From an uncultured Pseudomonadota bacterium (GTDB lineage Bacteria; Chloroflexota; UBA5177; JAJPKF01), in NCBI GenBank assembly GCA_963799725.1, contig CAWCYJ010000001.1:67485-131484 (forward strand): DNA of 64,000 nucleotides, given 5' to 3'. Numbering within the stretch: position 1 is the stretch's first letter; every line of letters starts with the position of its first letter. This document shows, piece after piece, positions 38,178 to 52,815 of this stretch. The translations under genes were made by a program, and so were the position numbers. Under the pieces are notes generated by a model. The model did no database searches and had not been told where the DNA came from. It worked only from the letters and a program-made list of their open reading frames with translations.

Positions 38178-39482
38178 TCAGTGCTCACCACGAGATCGGA
38201 ACATCAGGCGAATGGGTGTACCGAAAAAACCGAATCGCTCTCGGAGCCGATTCTCCAGGAAGCGGCGGTACGAAAAATGGATCAACTCGGGATCGTTGAC
38301 AAAAAAGGCAAAGGCCGGTGGGCCGGTGCTTACCTGCGTTACATAGAACAGTCGAACCTTCTTGCCCTGACGTGCCGGAGGTTGATAGTCAGACAGGGCT
38401 TTGTGAACCACCTCGTTCAGTTGCGCGGTTGGCACACGCTTGTTCCGCTCTCCCGCGACGCTTAGGGTTAACTGAAGCAGCTGATCGATCCTTTGTCTCG
38501 TAACCGCCGAGAGATAGGTGATCGGCGCGTAATCCATGAATTTCAAATGCTCGCGCAATGCCCGTTCGTACTCGTTGATTGTGGTGGCGGTCTTCTCCAC
38601 GAGATCCCACTTATTTACTGCGACGACCAATCCCTTGCCCTCTTCTTCCACAAAGCCGGCGATATGGGCGTCTTGGGCTGCGATAGGCTCGGTGGCATCT
38701 ATCACGAGGGCAGCCACGTCTGCGCGATCGATAGCTCTATGCGCTCGTAGGACGCTGTAGCGTTCTATGCCAGCTTCTATTTTGCCTCTCCGCCGAATTC
38801 CCGCTGTATCTATCAGGACAATCGACTGATTGTGGTACCGAACCTGGGTATCGACTGCATCACGAGTCGTACCGGCTGCCGGGGCCACGACCATCCGTTC
38901 TTCCCCAGTCAGCGCGTTCACTATCGAAGACTTCCCAACGTTGGGACGACCTACGATGGCCAGCTTCACCAATTCCTCTTCGAGTGGCTCCTCCTGAAGT
39001 GGAGGAAGAAGCTCGTCGATGCGATCTAGTAGATCTCCCGTTGCGAGTCCGCGCTCAGCCGACACAGCTACGGGATCTCCCAGAGCCAGGGCATGGAACT
39101 CGACCGCAGCCTCCATTTGGTTGCGGTTGTCTGCCTTATTCGCGACGAGGAGAACCGGCTTCCGGCTCTGCCGAAGGCGTTGGGCAATCTCTTCGTCGAC
39201 TGAAGTGACGCCAGAGCGGATGTCAGTCACCAACAGAATGACATCGGCCTCATCGATAGCCACAGATGCCTGCGCCATGACGCTTCGACCGATATCCTCA
39301 ACCGGTCCCGTGATCAGCCCGCCCGTATCCACCAAGGCAACGTTCCGCCCGTTCCAGTCGTACTGGCCATAGAGCCGGTCGCGGGTCGTACCCGGAACAT
39401 CCTCCACGATGGCCTGCCTTCGACCGGTAAGCCTGTTGAAGAGTCGAGACTTCCCCACGTTCGGGCGTCCCACCAGAGCCAC
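38178..39482 (-). CDS. der: Ribosome-biogenesis GTPase Der (EngA), double G-domain + KH-like domain
   Basis: VALVGRPNVGKSRLFNRL (G1), DTGG; second domain LAIVGRPNVGKSSIVNAL, DTAG, NKWD; C-terminal KH-like domain. The track ORF extends to 39599 across the cmk 3' end. GTG 39482 (MALVGRPNVGKS) is the most plausible start but is uncertain. Confidence 0.9.
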   Translation of the reverse strand: MALVGRPNVGKSRLFNRLTGRRQAIVEDVPGTTRDRLYGQYDWNGRNVALVDTGGLITGPVEDIGRSVMAQASVAIDEADVILLVTDIRSGVTSVDEEIAQRLRQSRKPVLLVANKADNRNQMEAAVEFHALALGDPVAVSAERGLATGDLLDRIDELLPPLQEEPLEEELVKLAIVGRPNVGKSSIVNALTGEERMVVAPAAGTTRDAVDTQVRYHNQSIVLIDTAGIRRRGKIEAGIERYSVLRAHRAIDRADVAALVIDATEPIAAQDAHIAGFVEEEGKGLVVAVNKWDLVEKTATTINEYERALREHLKFMDYAPITYLSAVTRQRIDQLLQLTLSVAGERNKRVPTAQLNEVVHKALSDYQPPARQGKKVRLFYVTQVSTGPPAFAFFVNDPELIHFSYRRFLENRLRERFGFFGTPIRLMFRSRGEH

Positions 39483-39489
39483 TAGCGGC

Positions 39490-40218
39490 TTAGCCAGATT
39501 GCACCCTAACCTCCGGCTGGAGCTTGCTCTCGACGGCGTCGAGGGCAAGCCTGAGCGACTCTTCGATGTTGAGGTGGCCGGTGTCGATGGGGATTGCATC
39601 GGGAGCCGGTCTCAAAGGTGAAATGGGCCGGGATGAGTCCATCAGGTCACGTCGCTTGATCTCAGCACCAAGGTGCGACTCCCCCTCAACCCTTTGCTCC
39701 GCTCGGCGACGTGCACGGATGTCTACCGAAGCCGTGACGAAAAACTTCACCTCCGCGTCTGGCAGAACAACGGTCCCGATGTCTCGTCCAAGCACGATTA
39801 TTTTGCCCTTCGAAGCCAGCTCTCGCTGTCTTTGAGCTAGGATCTTTCGCACCTCCCCATGGGCGGAAACAACTGAGACGTTGCGATCGATGGCTGCGGT
39901 ATGAAGCTCATCCGGTTCCAGATCCCGCCCATCGAGGGTGAGTCTCGCTGCTTGACCATCACCCTCGAGTGAGAAGTTCATTTGAGAGGCTACGTAAGTC
40001 ACGCAGTTGGAGTCCTCTGGAGGAGCACCGGCCATTTGGGTTAGCAAGGTCAAAGCCCTATACATGATTCCTGTGTCGAGCACCGGCCAATCGAGGGTTC
40101 GAGACAGGCCGGCGCCGAGAGTTGTCTTTCCCGCTCCTGCCGGACCGTCCACGGCGATCCTCAGTCCTCGTTTGCAGGTTGGGCTCGGCTCCTCTTGCCT
40201 CAACTTCGTGGTCGACAA
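39490..40218 (-). CDS. cmk: Cytidylate kinase
   Basis: IAVDGPAGAGKTTLGAGL...L....LDTG.MYRA.T is the P-loop block; ..GRD.GTVV.PDA..K.F..AS...RA.RR... Start is uncertain (TTG 40218 with AGAAGGAAG 9 nt upstream, or TTG 40203). The track start 40305 lies inside rluB. Confidence 0.85.
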   Translation of the reverse strand: MSTTKLRQEEPSPTCKRGLRIAVDGPAGAGKTTLGAGLSRTLDWPVLDTGIMYRALTLLTQMAGAPPEDSNCVTYVASQMNFSLEGDGQAARLTLDGRDLEPDELHTAAIDRNVSVVSAHGEVRKILAQRQRELASKGKIIVLGRDIGTVVLPDAEVKFFVTASVDIRARRRAEQRVEGESHLGAEIKRRDLMDSSRPISPLRPAPDAIPIDTGHLNIEESLRLALDAVESKLQPEVRVQSG

Positions 40219-40999
40219 AGGATTGCACTTCCTTCTTGCTGAGATCCCTGAAACGACCACGCGGCAGGTGACCGAGCCTGACCTCGCCAATGCGCACCCT
40301 TTCAAGGTACAACACGGGATGCCCCGCTTCGGCCGCTAGGAGTCGGATCTCTCGCTTACGACCCTCCTCAAGCTCGAATGCAACCCACGTATTGTTCTCT
40401 TCCACCTGCTGGGGCGACACCGACTTAGGGACCGCCAGCTTTCCGTCGATTGTGATGCCCTGCCGAAGCCTACTAAGCGCCTCTCGATCGAGCCGTCCCT
40501 GCAGCAACGCCACGTACTCCTTGGTGATTCCGTAGCGTGGATGGCTCACACGATTAGCCCAATCTCCGTCATTCGTCAGGAAAAGTAGTCCGCATGTATC
40601 TTTGTCGAGTCTTCCGACCGGATAAATGCGCTCGGACATCGGTACGAGATCCAGGACGGTGAGCTCATCCTTGGTAGGTACGTTCGCACAAACGTAACCC
40701 TCGGGTTTATTCAAGGCGATATAGCGCTTATTCGGGATGGCGATGGGCCGTCCGTCGACGAGAACCCTGGCTTCGAGTGGTACAAGCTGACCCACATGAG
40801 CCGTCCTTCCGTCCACAAGCACCCTTCCCTCGCGCACGAGATCTTCGGCACGCCGTCGGGAGGCAACGCCTGCCCGAGCTAGCCACTTGTGGATACGTTC
40901 GAACCCCTGGTTCACGATCCTTGCCTCGAACAATGACGCAGGAGCCACCAGCGAGTTCGCTGCCTCCCTCCGCACAAAGCAATCTATGCAAATGGTCAC
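40058..40999 (-). CDS. rluB: Pseudouridine synthase, RsuA/RluB family (S4 domain + catalytic domain) with an Arg-rich tail that overlaps cmk
   Basis: S4 domain: ERIHKWLARAGVASRRRAEDLVREGRV.VDG. Catalytic block: ALNKP.GYV.....K.E.TV.DLV......IYPVGRLDKDTCGLLFLTNDG.WANRV.HPRY...KEY. GTG start in a GTGA overlap with the dacB stop. Confidence 0.85.
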   Translation of the reverse strand: MTICIDCFVRREAANSLVAPASLFEARIVNQGFERIHKWLARAGVASRRRAEDLVREGRVLVDGRTAHVGQLVPLEARVLVDGRPIAIPNKRYIALNKPEGYVCANVPTKDELTVLDLVPMSERIYPVGRLDKDTCGLLFLTNDGDWANRVSHPRYGITKEYVALLQGRLDREALSRLRQGITIDGKLAVPKSVSPQQVEENNTWVAFELEEGRKREIRLLAAEAGHPVLYLERVRIGEVRLGHLPRGRFRDLSKKEVQSFVDHEVEARGAEPNLQTRTEDRRGRSGRSGKDNSRRRPVSNPRLAGARHRNHV

Positions 41000-42060
41000 C
41001 GAGGGTCGAATGGAGCGGTTACGTACCCCGCCTTTCCAACGCTAATCCAGCCTGACTCCCAACGGGGCACGGGAGCTGTCGTGACAGCACGGTGATGCAT
41101 GAGGGATTGAGTTGACCACATCGTATCCGAGCTGGTTGGCCACTCGTAGTTGTTGAAAGCAAACGTGAGAAGTGTCGCAGCATCGCTGAACCTTCCAAAC
41201 TCGGTGGATCCAAGAACGACAGCAATGACCACGTGACCCGCGCGGCGTGCGGCTGCGCTGACTGAGGCTCCGGCCGCGTCCGTAGTTCCCGTCTTCACAC
41301 CAATGATGCCGGGAAAGCTGCCCAGGAGTAGGTTGGTGTTTGTGAGGTTGAAGTTGACACCCCCACCTGCACTTGGGACCACGATATGCTTCGTATCGAC
41401 GATTTTGGCGAGGACGGGGTACCCTAGTACGATCCTGGTCATGTGAGCGACGTCAGCCGCGCAGGAGTACTCCCCTGGTGCGTCGAGACCGTGGGGCGTC
41501 ACATAGTGTGAGCACTTCAGACGGAAATCGTGCGCTTGACGGTTCATAAGTGCCGCGAACCGCTGCTGAGTCCCTGAGACGGCGAGGGCCAACGCCTCGG
41601 CCGCGTCATTTCCAGACGGGATGAGCGCACCATATAACAGTGAACGCACGGTGACACGGTCGCCGGCCGTGAGCCACATCGTCGATCCCGGCTCAGATGC
41701 GGCTTGAGAGTTGACGGTTATAACCCGATTGAGCGACAGGTGCTTCAGGGCAAGTACCACTGTCATGAGTTTTGTAATGCTGCCGATCGCGTGTTTCTGG
41801 TAGGCTCGTTCGCTTACCAAGACCCGGCCAGTTGTTCCATCAACCACGTCTAGTACATTGCCTGCGGTGGCAGGAACGGCATCCGTCGCGATCGCGGGGA
41901 CCTGGCTGTCCTGCAGTTGGTAGCCGGAGCTTGGATCTCGAATGGAGGGAGCCCAGGCGCATAGAAATACCGAGGCCAAGATAATCAAACAGAAGCGCAA
42001 GACAAAGGACGGAAGCGTCCGTCTTGAAGCCGACTCCGCACCTTGAGCACTCGAATCCAT
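40996..42060 (-). CDS. D-alanyl-D-alanine carboxypeptidase (peptidase S11, PBP5/DacB-like)
   Basis: N-terminal anchor, then SITK (SxxK), IPSGNDAAEALA (SGN) and VKTGTTDAAG (KTG). Confidence 0.85.
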   Translation of the reverse strand: MDSSAQGAESASRRTLPSFVLRFCLIILASVFLCAWAPSIRDPSSGYQLQDSQVPAIATDAVPATAGNVLDVVDGTTGRVLVSERAYQKHAIGSITKLMTVVLALKHLSLNRVITVNSQAASEPGSTMWLTAGDRVTVRSLLYGALIPSGNDAAEALALAVSGTQQRFAALMNRQAHDFRLKCSHYVTPHGLDAPGEYSCAADVAHMTRIVLGYPVLAKIVDTKHIVVPSAGGGVNFNLTNTNLLLGSFPGIIGVKTGTTDAAGASVSAAARRAGHVVIAVVLGSTEFGRFSDAATLLTFAFNNYEWPTSSDTMWSTQSLMHHRAVTTAPVPRWESGWISVGKAGYVTAPFDPR

Positions 42061-42122: not shown

Positions 42123-42749
42123 GTGAGCGGAAAGATCGATGCCATCGTCGCCGAATTGGCCGACCGGCTAGATGCAAAAAGCGCTGCTCGCGACAAGGCC
42201 CTCCTTGATTCAAGAAAGCTGACGCGCCAGGCCGCGCTCGCCATCCGGGCTCTGCATCGGGGAGATGTGGATCAGGCACGCTCCCTACTGCAGGAGGGCA
42301 CTTCCATCATTCGAGAAGTGACCAAGGACCTCGAAGGGTTCCCGGATCTCTACTGGAGCGGCTACGTTCAGGATGCGCAAAAGGAGTATGCCGAGGCCTC
42401 CATTGTGGCTTCCCTAATGGCTAATGAGGTGGTGCCTGGCCCGTCTGACCTGGCGGTAGAAATTGCTCCCTACCTCAATGGCCTGGGAGAAGCCGCAAGC
42501 GAAATGCGTCGGTATGTCCTCGACATCATCCGCCACGGATCTGCGGAGCATCAGCAGGAGGGAGAGAGAGTGCTCGGCCAGATGGATACCATCTACACGG
42601 CATTGATCACAGTCGATTTTCCGGATGCTCTAACTGGAGGACTTCGAAGGACGACGGACCTGGTTCGTGGGGTTCTGGAACGCACTCGCGGTGATCTGAC
42701 GATGTCTCTCCGCCAAGCGCAGCTGGAACGTGCCCTAGCGTCCAAGTAG
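42123..42749 (+). CDS. Translin-family protein (COG2178-like)
   Basis: 208 aa, all-helical. ..AARDKALLDSRKLTRQAALAIRALHRGDVDQARSLL.E....., YWSGYVQDAQKEYAEA, then PYLNGLGEAASEMRRYVLD (compare the translin Y..G..D..GEL.R motif), and the C-terminal LRRTTDLVRGVLERTRGDL. Confidence 0.55.
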   Translation: MSGKIDAIVAELADRLDAKSAARDKALLDSRKLTRQAALAIRALHRGDVDQARSLLQEGTSIIREVTKDLEGFPDLYWSGYVQDAQKEYAEASIVASLMANEVVPGPSDLAVEIAPYLNGLGEAASEMRRYVLDIIRHGSAEHQQEGERVLGQMDTIYTALITVDFPDALTGGLRRTTDLVRGVLERTRGDLTMSLRQAQLERALASK

Positions 42750-42785: not shown

Positions 42786-43094
42786 TTACAGGATGTGAAC
42801 CTGAGCGCCTGCTTGCTCGAGACGAACCCTCACGAACTCTGCCTCATCTCGTCGCACCCTCTTGACCACGAACTCGGGGGCCCCTTCGACCAGTGCTCTG
42901 ACCTCGGGCAACCGCAGCTGGGTCAGCTCGCGCACCACTCGCATGACCTCGATCTTGTTTGGACCGGGAGACTTTAGAACCACGGAGAAGTCCCAGGCGT
43001 CACTTCCTAGGGAATCAGGCGAGCGATTCTCGATACTGTCCAGGCTCTCGAGAACTTCACGTACCTCGCGGAAGACGGATTCGTCACCGTTCAA
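42786..43094 (-). CDS. Stand-alone ribosomal protein L7/L12 C-terminal-domain paralog (no N-terminal stalk-binding domain)
   Basis: 102 aa. Residues 34-102 (WDFSVVLKSPGPNKIEVMRVVRELTQLRLPEVRALVEGAPEFVVKRVRRDEAEFVRVRLEQAGAQVHIL) align without gaps to the CTD of the adjacent rplL product, with 33/69 identities by hand count including VRELTQL. TTG start at 43094 with GAGGTGG about 10 nt upstream. Confidence 0.7.
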   Translation of the reverse strand: MNGDESVFREVREVLESLDSIENRSPDSLGSDAWDFSVVLKSPGPNKIEVMRVVRELTQLRLPEVRALVEGAPEFVVKRVRRDEAEFVRVRLEQAGAQVHIL

Positions 43095-43129
43095 GCGGTT
43101 GCTACCACCTCACTCAGCCGAGATGTTGT

Positions 43130-43165
43130 GATGGTAGGGATCATCGGATGATGACCCCTACCATC
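43130..43165 (-). terminator. Strong 16-bp hairpin between rplL and the L12-CTD paralog (attenuator, terminator or processing site)
   Basis: On the minus strand: GATGGTAGGGGTCATC-atcc-GATGATCCCTACCATC (one G-U pair), starting 8 nt after the rplL stop. No U-tract follows (ACAACATC). Confidence 0.5.
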
Positions 43166-43173
43166 CAAACGGC

Positions 43174-43569
43174 CTACTTGACTTCGACCGGAGCTCCGGC
43201 TTCTTCGAGCTTCGCCTTTGCGGCATCCGCCTCTTCTCGTGAGACGTTCTCTTTCACCGGCTTCGGCGCTTCGTCGACCAACGCCTTTGCCTCCTTGAGG
43301 CCGAGCTGCGTCAGCTCGCGAACAGCCTTGATAACGGCGATCTTGTTTGCGCCTGCGCCATTGAGCATAACGGTGAATTCCGTCTGCTCCTCGACGGGAG
43401 CGGCTTCAGCAGTGGCTGCGGCCGGAGCGGCGGCTGCTGCCGCTGGTGCGGCGGCGGTGACGTTGAACTTGTCCTCAAATAGCTTGACGAACTCTGCGAT
43501 CTGCGAGAGAGTCATATTCTCAAACTGATCGACGAGCTCTTGGGGCGACATGGAATTTGCGACTGCCAT
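43174..43569 (-). CDS. rplL: 50S ribosomal protein L7/L12
   Basis: 131 aa. N-terminal dimerisation helices ([30 protein letters not shown]), an Ala-rich hinge, and the [70 protein letters not shown]. Confidence 0.95.
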
Positions 43570-44219: not shown

Positions 44220-44450
44220 CCGTTCTCCTTCTCTCTTCATTTAGCCCGAGGAGACAAACGGCGCCAGAAGTCGACGCAGGCAGGCCAAATCTCGATTGAG
44301 TCTGGCTGCGCTTCAGGCCTCGGCAGGATTCTTAAACGCTGATGCGTCCCTGCTGTCTCAGGCTATTTAGTTACTGCCTTCTATATTTTGAACTCAGAAG
44401 TCGCGGAGGAACTGAGAAATCGATCCAGTGGGTTTATTGAGATTGCTTGT
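44220..44450 (-). promoter_or_regulatory. Possible rplJ (L10) autoregulatory leader
   Basis: 231-nt untranslated spacer between rplA and rplJ. It contains GAGACAGCAGG...(24 nt)...CCUGCCGAGG, which can pair, and a CTCAG...CTGAG hairpin. The position matches known L10-leader elements, but I could not verify the fold. Confidence 0.3.
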
Positions 44451-46943: not shown

Positions 46944-47393
46944 TTCCGAAGCTCCTTGAGATCAGATTAAAAAGTTGCGCTGATACCGCTTGGTCGGCGC
47001 CGATAGGAACATCGACCGCTAGGAGTGTTCTCCGTTCGGCGACAAACCTAGGCACCACCATTTAGCTGGCTCATTGTGGGAGTCGACGCTAGTCCTCCAT
47101 ATGCAAGAAGGAGCGGCCGACTTCGATCCCTTTACATCCTTAGTATGGCGGATTTAGGCGATTTAGGCGAATTGAGCCTCTCTATCAACAGTTACTCGCG
47201 GTCTTGGGAGGCACGATAGCTGCAACATACTCAGGTAGAGAGTATGTCAGCGACCTGACGCCGGCCTGAGCAGCTTCCCGCAGCTTCGAAGGGGCCCCGT
47301 CAACACTGAGGGCATGTCGCCCATCAGTGTCTCCAACGTTCGGGCGCCGTGCCCCGCCATTGGCGATGGTATTGGCAGTAAGAGAAGGAGGTT

Positions 47394-49124
47394 ATGGGCC
47401 GCATCGCATCGCAAAGGGCACATAGCAGCACTACTTCAGGCCGAGAAGATCGGTACAAGTGGACCGCTCTATCCGTAACTACGGTCGGGGTGGTTCTGGC
47501 GACGATCGACGCCTCTATCATGCTGATCGCCATGCCGGACATCTTTCGCGGGATCCAGCTCGATCCGCTCATCCCGAGCAACAGCTTCTACCTGTTGTGG
47601 ATGATTCTCAGCTTTCTTGTCGTGAGTAGCGTACTCGTTGTCAGTCTCGGCAGGCTCGGCGATCTCTTCGGACGGGTTCGGATGTACAATCTCGGCTTCG
47701 TCATCTATACGGTTTCGTCGCTGTTTCTCACGGTCGATTGGCTCACAGGCCGGTCGGGCGCCACATATTTGATCGTGATGCGGGTATTCCAGGGAGTGGG
47801 TTCCGCCTTCCTGGTCGCCAATTCGGCCGCCATCCTCACTGACGCGTTTCCCAGCAATCAGCGTGGCATGGCGCTTGGCATCAACAACGTCGCAGGTATA
47901 AGCGGGATGTTCATCGGTCTCGTCCTCGGCGGGATTCTTGGGCCGATCAACTGGCGTCTCGTCTTTCTGGTTTCCGTTCCATTCGGCGCCTTCGGAACGG
48001 TTTGGGCCTACGTCAAGCTTCGGGAGCTGGGAACACATCGAAGGGCGCCGATCGACTGGCTGGGAAACGTCACATTTGCCGTAGGCTTGATCCTGATCAT
48101 GGTGGGTATCACGTACGGGATTCAGCCCTACGCGGGCAGGGACATGGGCTGGACAAATCCATTTGTCATCGCATCACTGTGCGCCGGTTGTCTCCTGCTG
48201 GCGTTTTTTGCGGCCATCGAGAACAGAATCCCCAGTCCAATGTTCACGACCCGACTCTTCGCGATCCGGCCCTTCACCTTCGGAGTTCTGTCCAGCTTCT
48301 TGGCAGCCGTCGCTCGCGGTGGTCTCATGTTCATGCTCATCATCTGGCTGCAGGGGATCTGGCTCCCTGAGCATGGATACAGTTTTCAGGATACGCCGCT
48401 GTGGGCAGGCATCTACATGCTTCCTTTGACGGCTGGATTTTTGCTTGCTGGCCCCATTTCCGGGTACCTTTCAGACCGTTTCGGAGCGCGGCCTTTCGCC
48501 ACAGGAGGAATGCTTGGGGCAGCGACGACGTTTATTCTTCTGCAGTTCATCCCAACGAACTTTGCCTACCCGTACTTTGCGGCCATCCTGCTCATGAACG
48601 GACTTTCGATGGGAGCGTTTGCCGCGCCGAACCGAGCAGGGGTCATGAACAGCCTTCCGGTGTCGGATCGCGGAGCCGGAAGTGGGATGAACACCACCTT
48701 TCAGAACTCGGCGCAGGTGCTCTCCATCGGCATCTTCTTCACCTTGATGATCGTCGGGTTGGCAAAGGTTCTTCCCGCGACGATGAGCCGCGGGCTCGAA
48801 GCGAACGGCGTGTCTCCGGCGGTTGCCACGCAGGTAGCCCACCTTCCGCCCGTATCGATCCTCTTCGCAGCCTTCCTTGGATACGATCCGATCCAACATC
48901 TATTACCGGCCCGAGCTATGGCCAAGCTCTCCCACGCGCAGGTCGCCAAGCTTACCGGCCGAACCTTCTTCCCACACCTGATCTCAGGACCATTCCACTC
49001 CGGTCTCGGCTACGCCTTCACGTTTGCCACCATCGCCTGCCTGCTCGCCGCCGCAGCCTCGTGGTCTCGAGGAGCGACCCGTTATGTGGCCGAGGCAACA
49101 ACGAGCGCAACAGCAGCCGAATAG
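47394..49124 (+). CDS. MFS transporter, DHA2 (14-TMS, EmrB/QacA-like) drug:H+ antiporter family
   Basis: 576 aa with about 14 TM helices. WTALSVTTVGVVLATIDASIMLIAMPDI, motif-A-like LGRLGDLFGRVRMY, VFQGVGSAFLVANSAAILTDAFP..QRG.ALG. RBS GAAGGAGG upstream of the ATG. Confidence 0.85.
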   Translation: MGRIASQRAHSSTTSGREDRYKWTALSVTTVGVVLATIDASIMLIAMPDIFRGIQLDPLIPSNSFYLLWMILSFLVVSSVLVVSLGRLGDLFGRVRMYNLGFVIYTVSSLFLTVDWLTGRSGATYLIVMRVFQGVGSAFLVANSAAILTDAFPSNQRGMALGINNVAGISGMFIGLVLGGILGPINWRLVFLVSVPFGAFGTVWAYVKLRELGTHRRAPIDWLGNVTFAVGLILIMVGITYGIQPYAGRDMGWTNPFVIASLCAGCLLLAFFAAIENRIPSPMFTTRLFAIRPFTFGVLSSFLAAVARGGLMFMLIIWLQGIWLPEHGYSFQDTPLWAGIYMLPLTAGFLLAGPISGYLSDRFGARPFATGGMLGAATTFILLQFIPTNFAYPYFAAILLMNGLSMGAFAAPNRAGVMNSLPVSDRGAGSGMNTTFQNSAQVLSIGIFFTLMIVGLAKVLPATMSRGLEANGVSPAVATQVAHLPPVSILFAAFLGYDPIQHLLPARAMAKLSHAQVAKLTGRTFFPHLISGPFHSGLGYAFTFATIACLLAAAASWSRGATRYVAEATTSATAAE

Positions 49125-49198
49125 ACCACGGTGGCCATGTAGCGCGAAGTCAACAGGAACCTTGGTCGGCCCACGTCCCCTGGCTTTGATACGTTTGG

Positions 49199-50914
49199 CT
49201 AGTTCAGCTCTACTGTTGTGGTCGCCGTTCCGGCTCGTTCCGATATGGCGGTGATCTTGACGGATTGATGCGGTTGGGCTCTCACAACCCACTCGAGCCG
49301 GCAGCGGTTGTCCGTTGGAGACACGCCGAGACCGCCGACGGTGAACTTGTTGCTCCGGCCCTCGAGCTGGCCGATCTCCGTCTGAAGCTTCCCCTGAACC
49401 AGAGTGGCTCCTTCCGGCAGCTCGAGATCTACCCGAATGGGCTTGACCGCCTGCCGCTCTTGGCCCCGTTTCGATGTATAGGTGGGAAGGTAGCCGGCAT
49501 TTTCCAGGATCAACTCGATCTTGCTGTGATCTGCGCCTAGCCCGGATGAGCTCGCTTGGACGATCCGGAGACGGGCAGATGCCGATGCCTGAGAGATGAC
49601 GAAGTCGTTGACCTTTGCGATCTCTTCCTCGAGGAAGGCGAGGGGCGGATTCCTCCACGTGAAGAGCTCATCCCAGCCACCAATCTCAACAGAGCCCAGC
49701 TGAGGATGCTCGAACGGCTGCCATCGGACTAAGCCCTCACCGCCGCAATTCTCATCGATCCATCGAAGAACCTTAAGATCGTCCTCGATCGGGTGATCTC
49801 GATACCATTCGATGAACTTTCGATCCTTTATGCCGGCTCGCGCCAGAATATCCCACAATTCGACTGTCCAGGCGAAGACGCCGAGGTGATCGTAGCACCA
49901 GTCATCAAAGGCGCCGTAGGTGAGTCGCTTCGGATGATACTGGAATTCGTGAAATGTGGAGACGTTGGGATATCCGGTGATCTCCGTTCCTCTTCTGCCC
50001 AGCCTCTCGAAAACCCAGACATCCTCCGGAGCCATCTGGTCATCCGGCTTGGTGCTGTAGGACCGGAGCAGCACCCCGCCGAATGTGTGGCAGGTGACGG
50101 CTCCGTTGATGTTCCCGTGAGTGGCCACGAATTCGACGGCGACGCGTGTTTCGGGCTCGGAGAGCGGAAACGGTCCAGCTCCGGCCTGATCGCCTTCCGG
50201 GGCCCACTCGAAGGGAAAATTTCGATTGAAGTCCAGTCCCTCAAGGGGTGGCGCTATGGGAATTAAACCGGGCTCCGGGTTATGGATCAGACCCTCCGGC
50301 AGCAGCCGGTAGTAGGTGCCGCCATACTCGTCAGGGGCCCGTTTGACCATGAGCCGATCGTCGTCTGCAGAGATCTTCCAGTCACCCGCCGGATCCTGCA
50401 GTCGCATCGTTAAGATGCGTCCATCGCCGTCGACATCCTCTTCATGCAGCCCATCGCGTTTCTCGGCATATGGATAGGGCCTGACTCCACTTCTGACTTG
50501 ATGAGGCGGCTGCAGAAAGGTCTGAGCCGCACCGTCCGGGTTCAGTCGGGGAGCGATGTAGAAAGCTGTTTCGTCCAGCAGGCGCGTCACCGTGGCATCC
50601 TCCCCATAGAGCGAAACCAGGTGATTGATGGTGTAGAGACAGGCCATGGTCCCAGTAATCTCAGTCGCGTGGAGATTGCCGTCCATCCATTGCGCGGGCT
50701 TTTCCTCCGCAGGCCCTGTGTGCAGATTCGTCACCGTCACAAGCCAGATCGGCCGGCCTTCATAGCTTCGGCCCAACTCAGAAAGAACACAGAGATCCGG
50801 ATGGGCCTCGGCAAGTGCCCGTAGCTGTGACTCGAGGGTCTCGTTATCGGAATATCTGTCGAATCGAATCTCCACTCGACCTCCCCAACTCTTCCTAGTT
50901 TTCTCTCGAGTCAC
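49199..50914 (-). CDS. M14-family zinc carboxypeptidase
   Basis: 571 aa. ..YSDNETLESQLRALAEAHPDLCVLSELGRSYEGRPIWLVTVTN.......KPAQWMDGNLHATEITGTMACLY..N.L. This is the HxxE zinc-site context of M14 peptidases. Confidence 0.8.
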   Translation of the reverse strand: MTREKTRKSWGGRVEIRFDRYSDNETLESQLRALAEAHPDLCVLSELGRSYEGRPIWLVTVTNLHTGPAEEKPAQWMDGNLHATEITGTMACLYTINHLVSLYGEDATVTRLLDETAFYIAPRLNPDGAAQTFLQPPHQVRSGVRPYPYAEKRDGLHEEDVDGDGRILTMRLQDPAGDWKISADDDRLMVKRAPDEYGGTYYRLLPEGLIHNPEPGLIPIAPPLEGLDFNRNFPFEWAPEGDQAGAGPFPLSEPETRVAVEFVATHGNINGAVTCHTFGGVLLRSYSTKPDDQMAPEDVWVFERLGRRGTEITGYPNVSTFHEFQYHPKRLTYGAFDDWCYDHLGVFAWTVELWDILARAGIKDRKFIEWYRDHPIEDDLKVLRWIDENCGGEGLVRWQPFEHPQLGSVEIGGWDELFTWRNPPLAFLEEEIAKVNDFVISQASASARLRIVQASSSGLGADHSKIELILENAGYLPTYTSKRGQERQAVKPIRVDLELPEGATLVQGKLQTEIGQLEGRSNKFTVGGLGVSPTDNRCRLEWVVRAQPHQSVKITAISERAGTATTTVELN

Positions 50915-50989
50915 TCTTGGTGCTGGTCAGAGCTGTACGATCTTCGGATGAGATGGCTACCAGGCTAGATCTACGGAGAGAGCGCTGCA

Positions 50990-51643
50990 TCATGGAGCTG
51001 TGCCGTTTGGCGTAAGCTTCGAGCCGTTCCAGGAATAAAAGATTGATATAGGCTTGCCTTTAGGGCAGCACATCGGATCTGACGCCTTATAGTTCGCGTA
51101 CTTGACAGATATCCCTGGTGTCGGGCTGGCCTGTCCGGCTATCGCCATCACGGCGGGCGATGGTTTCGATGTATCTGTCCCAAGCCAGGTGGTGTCATGG
51201 AAGAAAAAGACCTTCTGACAGTACCCATCTCCACTACCGGTGCATGTTGCGATCCAGGCGTATACCCTTCCGCCCTGCCCATCGCTGATCCAGGCGTACC
51301 TCCCGTTCGGTACGTAGCCGTGGTTACGTATCGTGCGCATATCCACTGTTTGTACATTCTGAGTGCCCTTGGTGCCTGTCGGGACTGGTGTGCTCGTCGA
51401 GGGTAGGATCGTGGCTGTTACGGCTGAAGTGGGAGCGGAAGTCGGCGTTGCAGATGGAGCGGACGATGGCGTCGGAGTAGGAGTTGACGCCGTGGGTGTG
51501 GGAGTCGACTTTGGTGAGGCGGCTCGGTGACCGATCTCGTATCCGGCAAATGCAATCGCGCCGGCGAGTATCACCGCTATAACGACTGCAGGTATGACCC
51601 ACGAGGGGGTATTCGAACCGCTTGGAGGTCGATTCTGGCTCAT
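50990..51643 (-). CDS. Membrane-anchored LppP/LprE-like protein with a Pro/Thr/Ser linker
   Basis: TM anchor (WVIPAVVIAVILAGAIAFAGY) and a PT-rich linker. The C-terminal domain ..YAWIATCTGSGDGYCQKVFFFHDTTWLGTDT....V.....G..ISVKYANYKASDPMCCPKG.PISIFYSWNG resembles the LppP/LprE lipoprotein family as I recall it. Confidence 0.5.
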   Translation of the reverse strand: MSQNRPPSGSNTPSWVIPAVVIAVILAGAIAFAGYEIGHRAASPKSTPTPTASTPTPTPSSAPSATPTSAPTSAVTATILPSTSTPVPTGTKGTQNVQTVDMRTIRNHGYVPNGRYAWISDGQGGRVYAWIATCTGSGDGYCQKVFFFHDTTWLGTDTSKPSPAVMAIAGQASPTPGISVKYANYKASDPMCCPKGKPISIFYSWNGSKLTPNGTAP

Positions 51644-51796
51644 GTCAGGACCTTCTTCCCATTTCTCTCACCATTCTCTACGTCGTCCAACTGCCGTCAG
51701 TTTATGAGACAGTCCTTGCAGTGTCAACCGCAAAACGGAGTGTCCTACCATGGAGACCAGCCTAGCCCAGTACGTGCCGGCCTTTCCACTTCAAAA

Positions 51797-52651
51797 CTAC
51801 GCCTCATCCCACAATGCTTCAGTCGTGCCCATCAGAAGCCGTTCGATCTGTAAGGTGTTCGGCTCCGCCGGTAGCGGGTTAGCCTCTCGAGCGGCCTCGA
51901 GTCGCTGGACTCCCTCATCTGCTTCCCGTTGGATCTTGTCGAGTGGCCATTCGCCATGCTTGACAGCGATAATTTCCTCCGCGTCGATACCTGTCCTGTC
52001 GACATTCATCTCACCTGTCTCTGCCAGCTCGAGTCCCATACGGAGGAGACGCAGGCAGTGGGCTGCATTCTTTGGGGAGTAGCCAAACTGCTCAAATTGC
52101 TCTTTTCGCTCCCGCCCAAGACGTCCCATGTGGTTCGGGTGAGTGAGGCGCCTCAGCTGGTCGGCGGCGTAGTTCACAAATGAGTCGTATACTCGTTCGG
52201 ACAGGAAGTCTGTCCGATGCTGCCGCCACTTCTCCCACTCGGCATGTTCGACCAGGATATGAGCCTTCGATATCCACAGCAGCCCCATGGCATTCGGATT
52301 CCCCTTAAGCAGCAAGCGTGCGAGTTTTCTGACGGAGTAGGCGACGACATCCAGGTCGCCATAGGTGCCTGCAACCGGCGTCCAGTGCTGCCACTCCTGA
52401 AGTCCATAGACCAGTCTCCGAGGAGGCTGAACGATCCACATGATGTCTGTGTCGTCGATGGATAGCGGATCCTCTGGAGGCACGTAGGTTCCGTGGCTGT
52501 GGGAGCCAACCCTTGTCATCAGAAGAGTGGCTGGCCGCCAGTCGTAGGGCCAGTTGCCGGCCACCTCAAGCTCAGTGAACCTGTTCATCCCCGTTACTCC
52601 AGTCAAGTCCTGCAGGGTACGGTCGAGTAACAGCGCAGAGTGCTTCCTCAA
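51797..52651 (-). CDS. Pol-beta-superfamily nucleotidyltransferase (COG3541 / RlaP-like predicted nucleotidyltransferase)
   Basis: 284 aa. NTase motif VGSHSHGTYVPPEDPLSIDDTDIMWIV (GS...G...DxD). The C-terminal helical part KNAAHCLRLLRMGLELAETGEMNVDR......I.AVKHGEW......READEG...LEAA.....LPAEPN...IERLL is typical of this family. Confidence 0.6.
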   Translation of the reverse strand: MRKHSALLLDRTLQDLTGVTGMNRFTELEVAGNWPYDWRPATLLMTRVGSHSHGTYVPPEDPLSIDDTDIMWIVQPPRRLVYGLQEWQHWTPVAGTYGDLDVVAYSVRKLARLLLKGNPNAMGLLWISKAHILVEHAEWEKWRQHRTDFLSERVYDSFVNYAADQLRRLTHPNHMGRLGRERKEQFEQFGYSPKNAAHCLRLLRMGLELAETGEMNVDRTGIDAEEIIAVKHGEWPLDKIQREADEGVQRLEAAREANPLPAEPNTLQIERLLMGTTEALWDEA

Positions 52652-52815
52652 GGTGTTGTGAGAGGAAGAACCAACTTAGCCGTACGTCGAACGCGCTGAT
52701 GTCATGTAGATCCGGCTGTCGGTCGGCTGTCGCTCAAAAGCTTCCCTCAGAGCGAGGACCATGCCTGCTATCCAGGCGAACGTGCGTTAGCTCCGTAGGG
52801 GTTCAACTAAGGAAA

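Follow-up and report, generated by a model that had tools for sequence, protein, structure and literature searches.

The question raised by this locus is whether a short reading frame directly after rplL is a real gene, and what an L12 head without its stalk-attachment parts might do in the cell. IF2, EF-Tu, EF-G and RF3 all dock on the L12 head, a universal landing site that, to our knowledge, has been studied only as a part of the stalk. The window (the whole stretch of DNA that was analysed, 64,000 nucleotides) comes from the genome of an uncultured Chloroflexota bacterium, and its ORF list contained a 102-aa paralog consisting of the L12 C-terminal domain (CTD) and a short leader at 42786..43094 on the minus strand.

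Gene organisation and reading frame

Analysis of the ORFs and their Pfam matches showed the minus-strand order rpmG, tRNA-Trp, secE, nusG, rplK, rplA, rplJ and rplL. The rplL product has 131 aa and is encoded by the last gene of the secE-nusG-rplK-rplA-rplJ-rplL run; the TTG start of the paralog lies 79 nt past the rplL stop. The features of the locus are as follows:

42786..43094, minus strand: CDS of the L12-CTD-only paralog, TTG start at 43094-43092 and TAA stop at 42788-42786
42789..42992, minus strand: L7/L12 C-terminal domain (beta-alpha-alpha-beta-alpha-beta), codons 35-102, from Pfam, the structural model and a dN/dS of 0.03
42993..43037, minus strand: charged linker, codons 20-34, pN 0.79 against pS 0.55, pLDDT below 50
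43038..43082, minus strand: conserved N-terminal motif V.R.VREVLE.L, codons 5-19, 10 of 15 residues identical between orthologs
43105..43111, minus strand: Shine-Dalgarno-like GAGGTGG, read from the sequence, 10 nt before the TTG
43130..43165, minus strand: perfect hairpin with a 16-bp stem and a 4-nt loop, separating the rplL stop from the start of the paralog and not followed by a U-tract
43174..43569, minus strand: rplL, full-length L7/L12, the parent-type gene, with the Pfam domains L12_N and L12

An in-frame TGA (43112-43110), five sense codons 5' of the TTG, closes the frame, so the protein cannot exceed 102 aa. The Shine-Dalgarno-like element is predicted to be paired in a small local stem in the centroid fold. 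A longer paralog from an upstream start was considered and rejected: the ortholog HZT96947.1 (locus L006, DASRCF010000176.1) is annotated by NCBI with 117 aa, but the window has the TGA in this frame. The annotation of HZT96947.1 begins at a GTG within the intergenic hairpin, and its extra codons are hairpin sequence. Judged by the comparison of the two sequences, it is the 102-aa form that is conserved, the 117-aa annotation notwithstanding. A fusion of rplL and the paralog was ruled out, as the frames differ and stops lie between the two genes.

The neighbourhood showed several other features. A convergent 208-aa gene (42123-42749, plus strand) next to the paralog is syntenic in both paralog-bearing lineages; its best match was of the NCBIfam PRK14562 type ("haloacid dehalogenase superfamily protein", E 5e-77, below cutoff), and its Pfam Translin match was weak. 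Past this gene, at 38178-42060 on the minus strand (the paralog strand), lie a D-Ala-D-Ala carboxypeptidase, an RluB-type pseudouridine synthase, a 271-aa ORF (a putative cmk, as read from the sequence) and der, which encodes the 50S-binding GTPase EngA. The rplA-rplJ gap (44241-44450, minus strand) contains 210 untranslated nucleotides where an L10-leader autoregulatory RNA is expected. No tuf gene occurs at its usual place, between the tRNA-Thr/Tyr cluster and rpmG-secE-nusG; the genes there (46950-52800) encode an MFS transporter, an M14 carboxypeptidase, an LppP/LprE-type lipoprotein and a RlaP-family protein.

Domain identity and structure

The only Pfam match of the paralog was Ribosomal_L12 (PF00542; E 4.7e-19, 68.9 bits), which spanned residues 36-101 and profile positions 1-66 of 67. 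The score exceeds the Pfam gathering threshold of 25.9 bits, and the paralog is a member of the PF00542 family. One stretch only was matched, and Pfam found no tandem PF00542 repeats in the protein. The adjacent rplL matched both Pfam domains, L12_N and the L12 CTD. BLASTP aligned the paralog to the rplL CTD without gaps over 67 positions with 33 identities (49%, E 3e-20), and a per-column table of the two likewise gave 33 identities.

These results bear out the sequence-only reading of this DNA, in which the C-terminal part had been aligned gaplessly to the CTD of the adjacent L7/L12. The shared blocks that it had named (VRELTQL, G.NKI, ALV..AP and LE.AGA) were all reproduced in the per-column table, as were its four replacements of CTD lysine by arginine, which number exactly four and fall at positions 70, 84, 107 and 109 (E. 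coli numbering). It had also expected a match to the CTD model and none to the L12_N model, and this was the outcome (CTD E 4.7e-19, L12_N without a match).

The AlphaFold model, built on a 117-sequence alignment, gave pLDDT values of 85-89 for residues 35-102. Superposition of the model onto the L12 CTD structure 1ctf in Foldseek gave an rmsd of 0.7 Å and a TM score of 0.96. There were 14 sequence matches of the paralog in the PDB, all of them L7/L12. The presence of a CTD-only L12 paralog at this locus is confirmed.

Conservation and selection

The protein collection contained one 99%-identical copy of the paralog and one ortholog (P0002) with 70% identity and exactly 102 aa. P0002 was found on four metagenome contigs and in a GTDB Chloroflexota MAG, and its loci had the layout rplK-rplA-rplJ-rplL-paralog followed each time by the same convergent 208-aa gene. 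A CTD-only frame downstream of rplL, proposed as something to look for in relatives, is thus present as a syntenic ortholog in a second Chloroflexota lineage. As only two lineages carry the paralog, covariation and co-occurrence tests are impossible.

Between the orthologs, the dN/dS of the CTD was about 0.03 (with dS saturated), that of the whole paralog gene was 0.12 and that of rplL was 0.03. A large proportion of the CTD residues (60 of 68) were identical, and 33 of these 60 were encoded through different codons. Purifying selection on the CTD is therefore strong. The low dN/dS and the codon-differing identical residues show that the frame is neither a spurious ORF nor a dying duplicate, its frame and length also being intact, and the option of a decaying partial duplication raised by the sequence-only reading is refuted. 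By these sequence comparisons, the paralog is a genuine protein-coding gene that has been kept in at least two divergent lineages.

Origin and distribution

The VRELTQL signature was common to the paralog CTD and 29 of the 119 closest L12 proteins, and the identity of the paralog CTD to L12 of related Chloroflexota reached 57% (39/68). In a neighbour-joining tree the paralog was nested inside the Chloroflexota L12 clade, with a long stem (0.30) and short tips (0.06-0.07), branch lengths of the kind expected when a duplicate first evolves quickly and then comes under constraint. Its sequence traces the paralog to an L12 gene of its own Chloroflexota clade; on the 68 positions of the tree, a tandem duplication of the host rplL and an acquisition from a close relative are indistinguishable.

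An exhaustive HMMER profile search of 1.84 billion cluster representatives returned a single full-length ortholog cluster, and scans of genome, metagenome and protein collections for further orthologs returned only the same second lineage. Six relatives, with L12 proteins 71-83% identical, have a convergent murJ directly after rplL and no paralog. No second L12 CTD was found by tblastn in four of these murJ-type loci (L008-L013) or among the gene calls of the remaining two lineages. The paralog thus lies at a synteny breakpoint, since its paralog-free relatives have murJ at the rplL junction. The earlier remark that it sits in the slot after rplL where rpoBC usually follows carries little weight and does not apply in this clade, given the murJ in these six related lineages. 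As far as the data go, the paralog is confined to a narrow branch of uncultured Chloroflexota.

A phage or defence origin was also considered and rejected, with no PHROG or PADLOC match and no compositional anomaly. The matches to the paralog in phage collections were host-type rplL in contaminant-like records.

Stalk-attachment parts and the N-terminal leader

Ribosomal_L12_N (PF16320) gave no match in the paralog even at E <= 1, while the adjacent rplL scored 62.3 bits. A custom profile built from 116 L12 N-terminal domains gave about 0 bits on both ortholog leaders, no better than shuffled sequences. The TIGR00855 score of the paralog was 59.6 bits, below the equivalog cutoff of 84.4, and covered profile positions 57-124 only. 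No Ala/Pro hinge was found: at residues 20-34 the window protein has ENRSPDSLGSDAW and the ortholog RRAYDRRREDVEGY, each a charged stretch that is not rich in Ala or Pro. The L12_N model, the custom profile and the leader sequence thus all agree with the earlier claim that the N-terminal dimerisation/L10-binding helices and the hinge are absent.

An additional L12 site on L10 was looked for in an alignment of six L10 proteins, and the paralog-bearing genomes showed no clade-specific extension. With no L12_N match, a TIGR00855 score below cutoff, a flat N-domain profile and an unextended L10, a canonical stalk position is not supported, and the paralog is not expected to be a normal stalk protein.

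The leader had been described as a 33-aa acidic stretch. Acidic it is in both orthologs (pI 4.05 and 4.94), but it is not merely an acidic tail, as residues 5-19 form a conserved motif that is followed by a 15-residue unconserved linker. Most identical residues in codons 5-19 are encoded through different codons (pN 0.24 against pS 0.81). Hydrophobic residues occur at leader positions 7, 11, 14 and 18 (and 21), and AlphaFold placed a helix at residues 4-18 or 12-17 with low confidence (pLDDT 41-52); residues 5-19 are probably an amphipathic helix. In codons 20-34 the sequence is unconstrained and the length is equal in both orthologs, with no indels, and this linker is probably disordered. Taken together, a motif, a free linker of fixed length and a head look like a tethered module at the level of sequence.

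The MAFFT alignment offered the leader as a relic of L12 helix 2. This was unsupported for the window leader (744/5000 in the shuffle test) and the 116-domain profile was free of signal; the P0002 leader gave 13/5000 in a pairwise shuffle test, which is suggestive. A weak Pfam EAD4 match on the leader (E 0.16) was taken as chance.

Factor-binding surface

Among 116 L12 proteins, 22 CTD columns were invariant, and 7 of these 22 were replaced identically in both orthologs: E53D, I69M, K70R, G79R, A83V, K84R and E96K (E. coli numbering). Both orthologs also carried K81P, in a column conserved in 99% of the 116 proteins, and the further replacements K92E, P93F, A/E105F and E112Q. E. coli L12 keeps the L12-typical residue at all eight conserved positions (53, 69, 70, 79, 81, 83, 84 and 96). 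Six of the eight lie within the factor-binding region of helix 4 and helix 5; the substitutions are not enriched there statistically, since this region accounts for 24 of the 68 positions and for 6 of the 12 novel residues.

Other residues of this face were kept in the paralog, namely K65, V68, R73, L80 and E82. The contact of the EF-G G' domain on L12 has been assigned to V66-V68, K70, L80 and E82 (PMC5887453), and at these published contact residues the paralog is retained or conservatively changed. As the EF-G contacts are kept and the start of helix 5 is replaced, the core of the factor face would appear to survive and its rim, where helix 5 begins, to have been rebuilt.

The CTD has moved from a net acidic to a net basic charge: its pI is 9.7 in the window protein and 8.2 in the ortholog, whereas the rplL CTD has 5.45. 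P93F and A/E105F are new hydrophobic residues. The replacements fixed in both orthologs point to a changed, not a retained, specificity, as judged from the residues themselves.

Intergenic hairpin and expression context

The 96-nt intergenic stretch that contains the hairpin folded with -46.5 kcal/mol (z -6.1). In the ortholog locus L001, the corresponding site (about 2775-2808) also carries a GC-rich hairpin, with another sequence and a pyrimidine-rich tail behind it. From the two sequences compared, the end of rplJL seems to bear an element that is conserved in structure. The hairpin is likely an attenuator or an RNA-stability element that sets the read-through into the paralog, with a logic analogous to that of the rplL-rpoB attenuator of E. 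coli. Its interpretation as a dispersed repeat was rejected, as it is unique in the window. Scans found no sigma-70-like promoter and no canonical terminator between rplL and the paralog, and the only Rfam families that reached the gathering score in the window were four tRNAs, none of them near the paralog.

Codon adaptation was 0.667 for the paralog, 0.625 +/- 0.031 for ordinary genes and 0.683 (leave-one-out) for rplL; codon bias in this genome is too weak for these values to decide the expression level.

Comparison with known L12-domain proteins

The paralog resembles bL12 (TIGR00855; PF16320 and PF00542) in the identity of its CTD (49% to the adjacent rplL and at most 57% to L12 of related Chloroflexota), in its fold (1ctf, rmsd 0.7 Å) and in the retained residues K65, V68, R73, L80 and E82. 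It differs from bL12 in that it has no N-terminal dimerisation/L10-binding domain, no Ala/Pro hinge and a score below the TIGR00855 cutoff, in the replacement of I69, K70, G79, K81, A83, K84, E53 and E96, and in a CTD that is basic instead of acidic. Lacking the N-terminal domain, the hinge and an equivalog score, the paralog is by its sequence not a bL12 in the functional sense.

The nearest analogues in the literature are the phage proteins that contain only the bL12 domain, which were described by Mizuno et al. 2019 in Nat Commun (PMC6375957) and are reportedly under purifying selection, with no function assigned. Like the paralog, they have an L12 CTD without the L12 N-terminal domain, and some have 98-107 aa with the domain spanning nearly the whole protein (PMC6375957). 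The phage proteins are about 30-40% identical to cellular L12, were independently acquired and occur in varied contexts (PMC6375957), whereas the paralog is chromosomal, lies directly after rplL, derives from L12 of the host clade and has no PHROG match. In IMG/VR, a 148-aa L12-CTD protein with an unrelated N-terminal domain and no L12_N was seen on a 316-kb jumbo-phage contig (L018, 2782-3225), and proteins of about 710 aa with an embedded L12 CTD (L022-L024) matched the large phage proteins of Mizuno et al. 2019.

The exhaustive search also showed hundreds of bacterial proteins with 2-8 tandem L12-CTD repeats and no L12_N (for example P0003-P0151), among them WP_346660302.1 of Nannocystis pusilla (593 aa, 7 repeats). 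A 953-aa protein combined 6 L12-CTD repeats with LRV/HEAT repeats. P0057 and P0098 have signal peptides and Cys-bracketed L12-CTD repeats, and some of the multi-repeat proteins are apparently secreted. The multi-repeat proteins share with the paralog a PF00542 domain outside the stalk, the absence of L12_N and the database name "ribosomal protein L7/L12". They differ from it in having 2-8 tandem repeats and, in many cases, signal peptides or further repeat domains, where the paralog has a single domain and an N-terminal motif.

ClpS, the N-degron adaptor of ClpAP, has the same alpha/beta fold; as a small, free adaptor whose N-terminus bears a flexible extension, it may serve as a functional analogy for a protein made of a free head and a tail. 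Its identity to the paralog is only 15%, with a TM score of about 0.66 and a Foldseek E of about 1e-2, far below the L12 matches, and Pfam found no ClpS domain (PF02617) in the paralog; the sequence is unambiguously derived from L12.

The earlier statement that no free L12-CTD protein has been characterised in bacteria agrees with the literature searches for bacteria, but phage versions are published (PMC6375957), and with hundreds of uncharacterised bacterial multi-repeat proteins the class has precedents. The literature searched contained no account of a free CTD paralog adjacent to rplL in a cellular genome, but its coverage is incomplete, so that this is absence of evidence only.

Proposed function and alternative explanations

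The tentatively preferred explanation is an off-stalk, neofunctionalised L12 head. The gene would be transcribed from the rplJL transcript by attenuated read-through of the hairpin; a promoter of its own is unlikely, since the 79-nt spacer leaves little room for one. The protein would act away from the stalk as a free head, its retuned helix 4-helix 5 face would bind a translational GTPase, or one particular GTPase paralog, and the N-terminal motif would tether it or pair it with a partner. The outcome would be a modulation of factor-ribosome traffic and no structural role in the ribosome. That the free CTD is a trans-acting stalk-head mimic which tunes factor recruitment or GTPase activation, for example in certain growth states, is possible but doubtful; if true, this would make it the first regulator in cells to have evolved from the stalk protein.

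The sequence-only reading had proposed a soluble decoy or modulator of translational GTPases. Its off-stalk part fits the lack of any detectable attachment domain. The case for a simple decoy of the normal factors has become weaker, since eight positions conserved in L12 were replaced and then fixed. The binding of free L12 to the factors is weak in NMR titrations, so a low-abundance soluble CTD would be a poor competitor; with the L12 rim residues not preserved, a plain decoy is unlikely. G79R and K81P, at the start of helix 5 in the factor face, could even abolish GTPase binding altogether.

A different, rather unlikely explanation is that the CTD fold was co-opted as a generic protein-binding module with a partner unrelated to translation, as may likewise be the case for the multi-repeat, secreted or phage carriers of the domain. 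The top 150 matches of the exhaustive search, apart from the ortholog, all had 2-8 L12-CTD repeats without L12_N, some with signal peptides or LRV/HEAT repeats, and phage proteins embed the domain in unrelated contexts. The replaced factor-face positions, the new hydrophobic residues P93F and A/E105F and the reversed charge fit such a co-option as well. It is harder to reconcile with the location of the paralog directly within the rplJL transcription unit, with the retention of K65, V68, R73, L80 and E82 and the conservative K70R, and with the 49-57% identity to genuine L12, which is closer than a long-diverged adaptor domain would be.

An alternative stalk subunit, with the motif docking on L10 helix 8 or on the L12 N-terminal dimer to give some ribosomes a variant head, is improbable. 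Its layout of a short helix, a linker of fixed length and a CTD is that of a miniature L12, and both the MAFFT pairing of the leader with L12 helix 2 and the 13/5000 of the P0002 leader speak for it; yet the 744/5000 of the window leader is not significant, the N-terminal profile treats both leaders like shuffles at about 0 bits, the leader lacks a counterpart of helix 1 of the L12 N-terminal domain, and L10, having no clade-specific extension, offers no additional site for binding. Binding of RNA (such as the rplJL mRNA or rRNA) by a basic, Arg-rich CTD, with the acidic leader as an intramolecular mask, is very improbable. The pI values of the CTD (9.7 and 8.2, against 5.45 in host L12) and of the leader (4.05 and 4.94) and the 9 arginines among 68 CTD residues are in its favour, but the gain in net charge amounts to only about +2 to +3, drift from lysine to arginine is common in genes of G+C-rich genomes that are not highly expressed, the fold has no known RNA-binding motif or precedent, and no Rfam element was found near the paralog. 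The chance that the frame is a dead or dying partial rplL duplicate or a spurious ORF is negligible. The TTG start, the strong hairpin upstream and the restriction to two lineages would suit it; the selection analysis effectively refutes it, with a CTD dN/dS of 0.03 at saturated dS, intact frame and length and 33 synonymous codon differences under identical residues, and the codon adaptation exceeds the genome average.

Significance

The general importance of the paralog is limited by its rarity, as it occurs in two uncultured lineages. The label "ribosomal protein L7/L12" on such proteins (HZT96947.1, WP_346660302.1) misleads copy-number and marker-gene analyses. In this branch of the Chloroflexota, an L12 head has been detached, its factor face retuned, and the result kept under selection of roughly the strength that acts on L12. 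The paralog thereby offers a natural test of which residues of the head set factor specificity, and it raises the possibility that translational GTPases may be regulated in trans.
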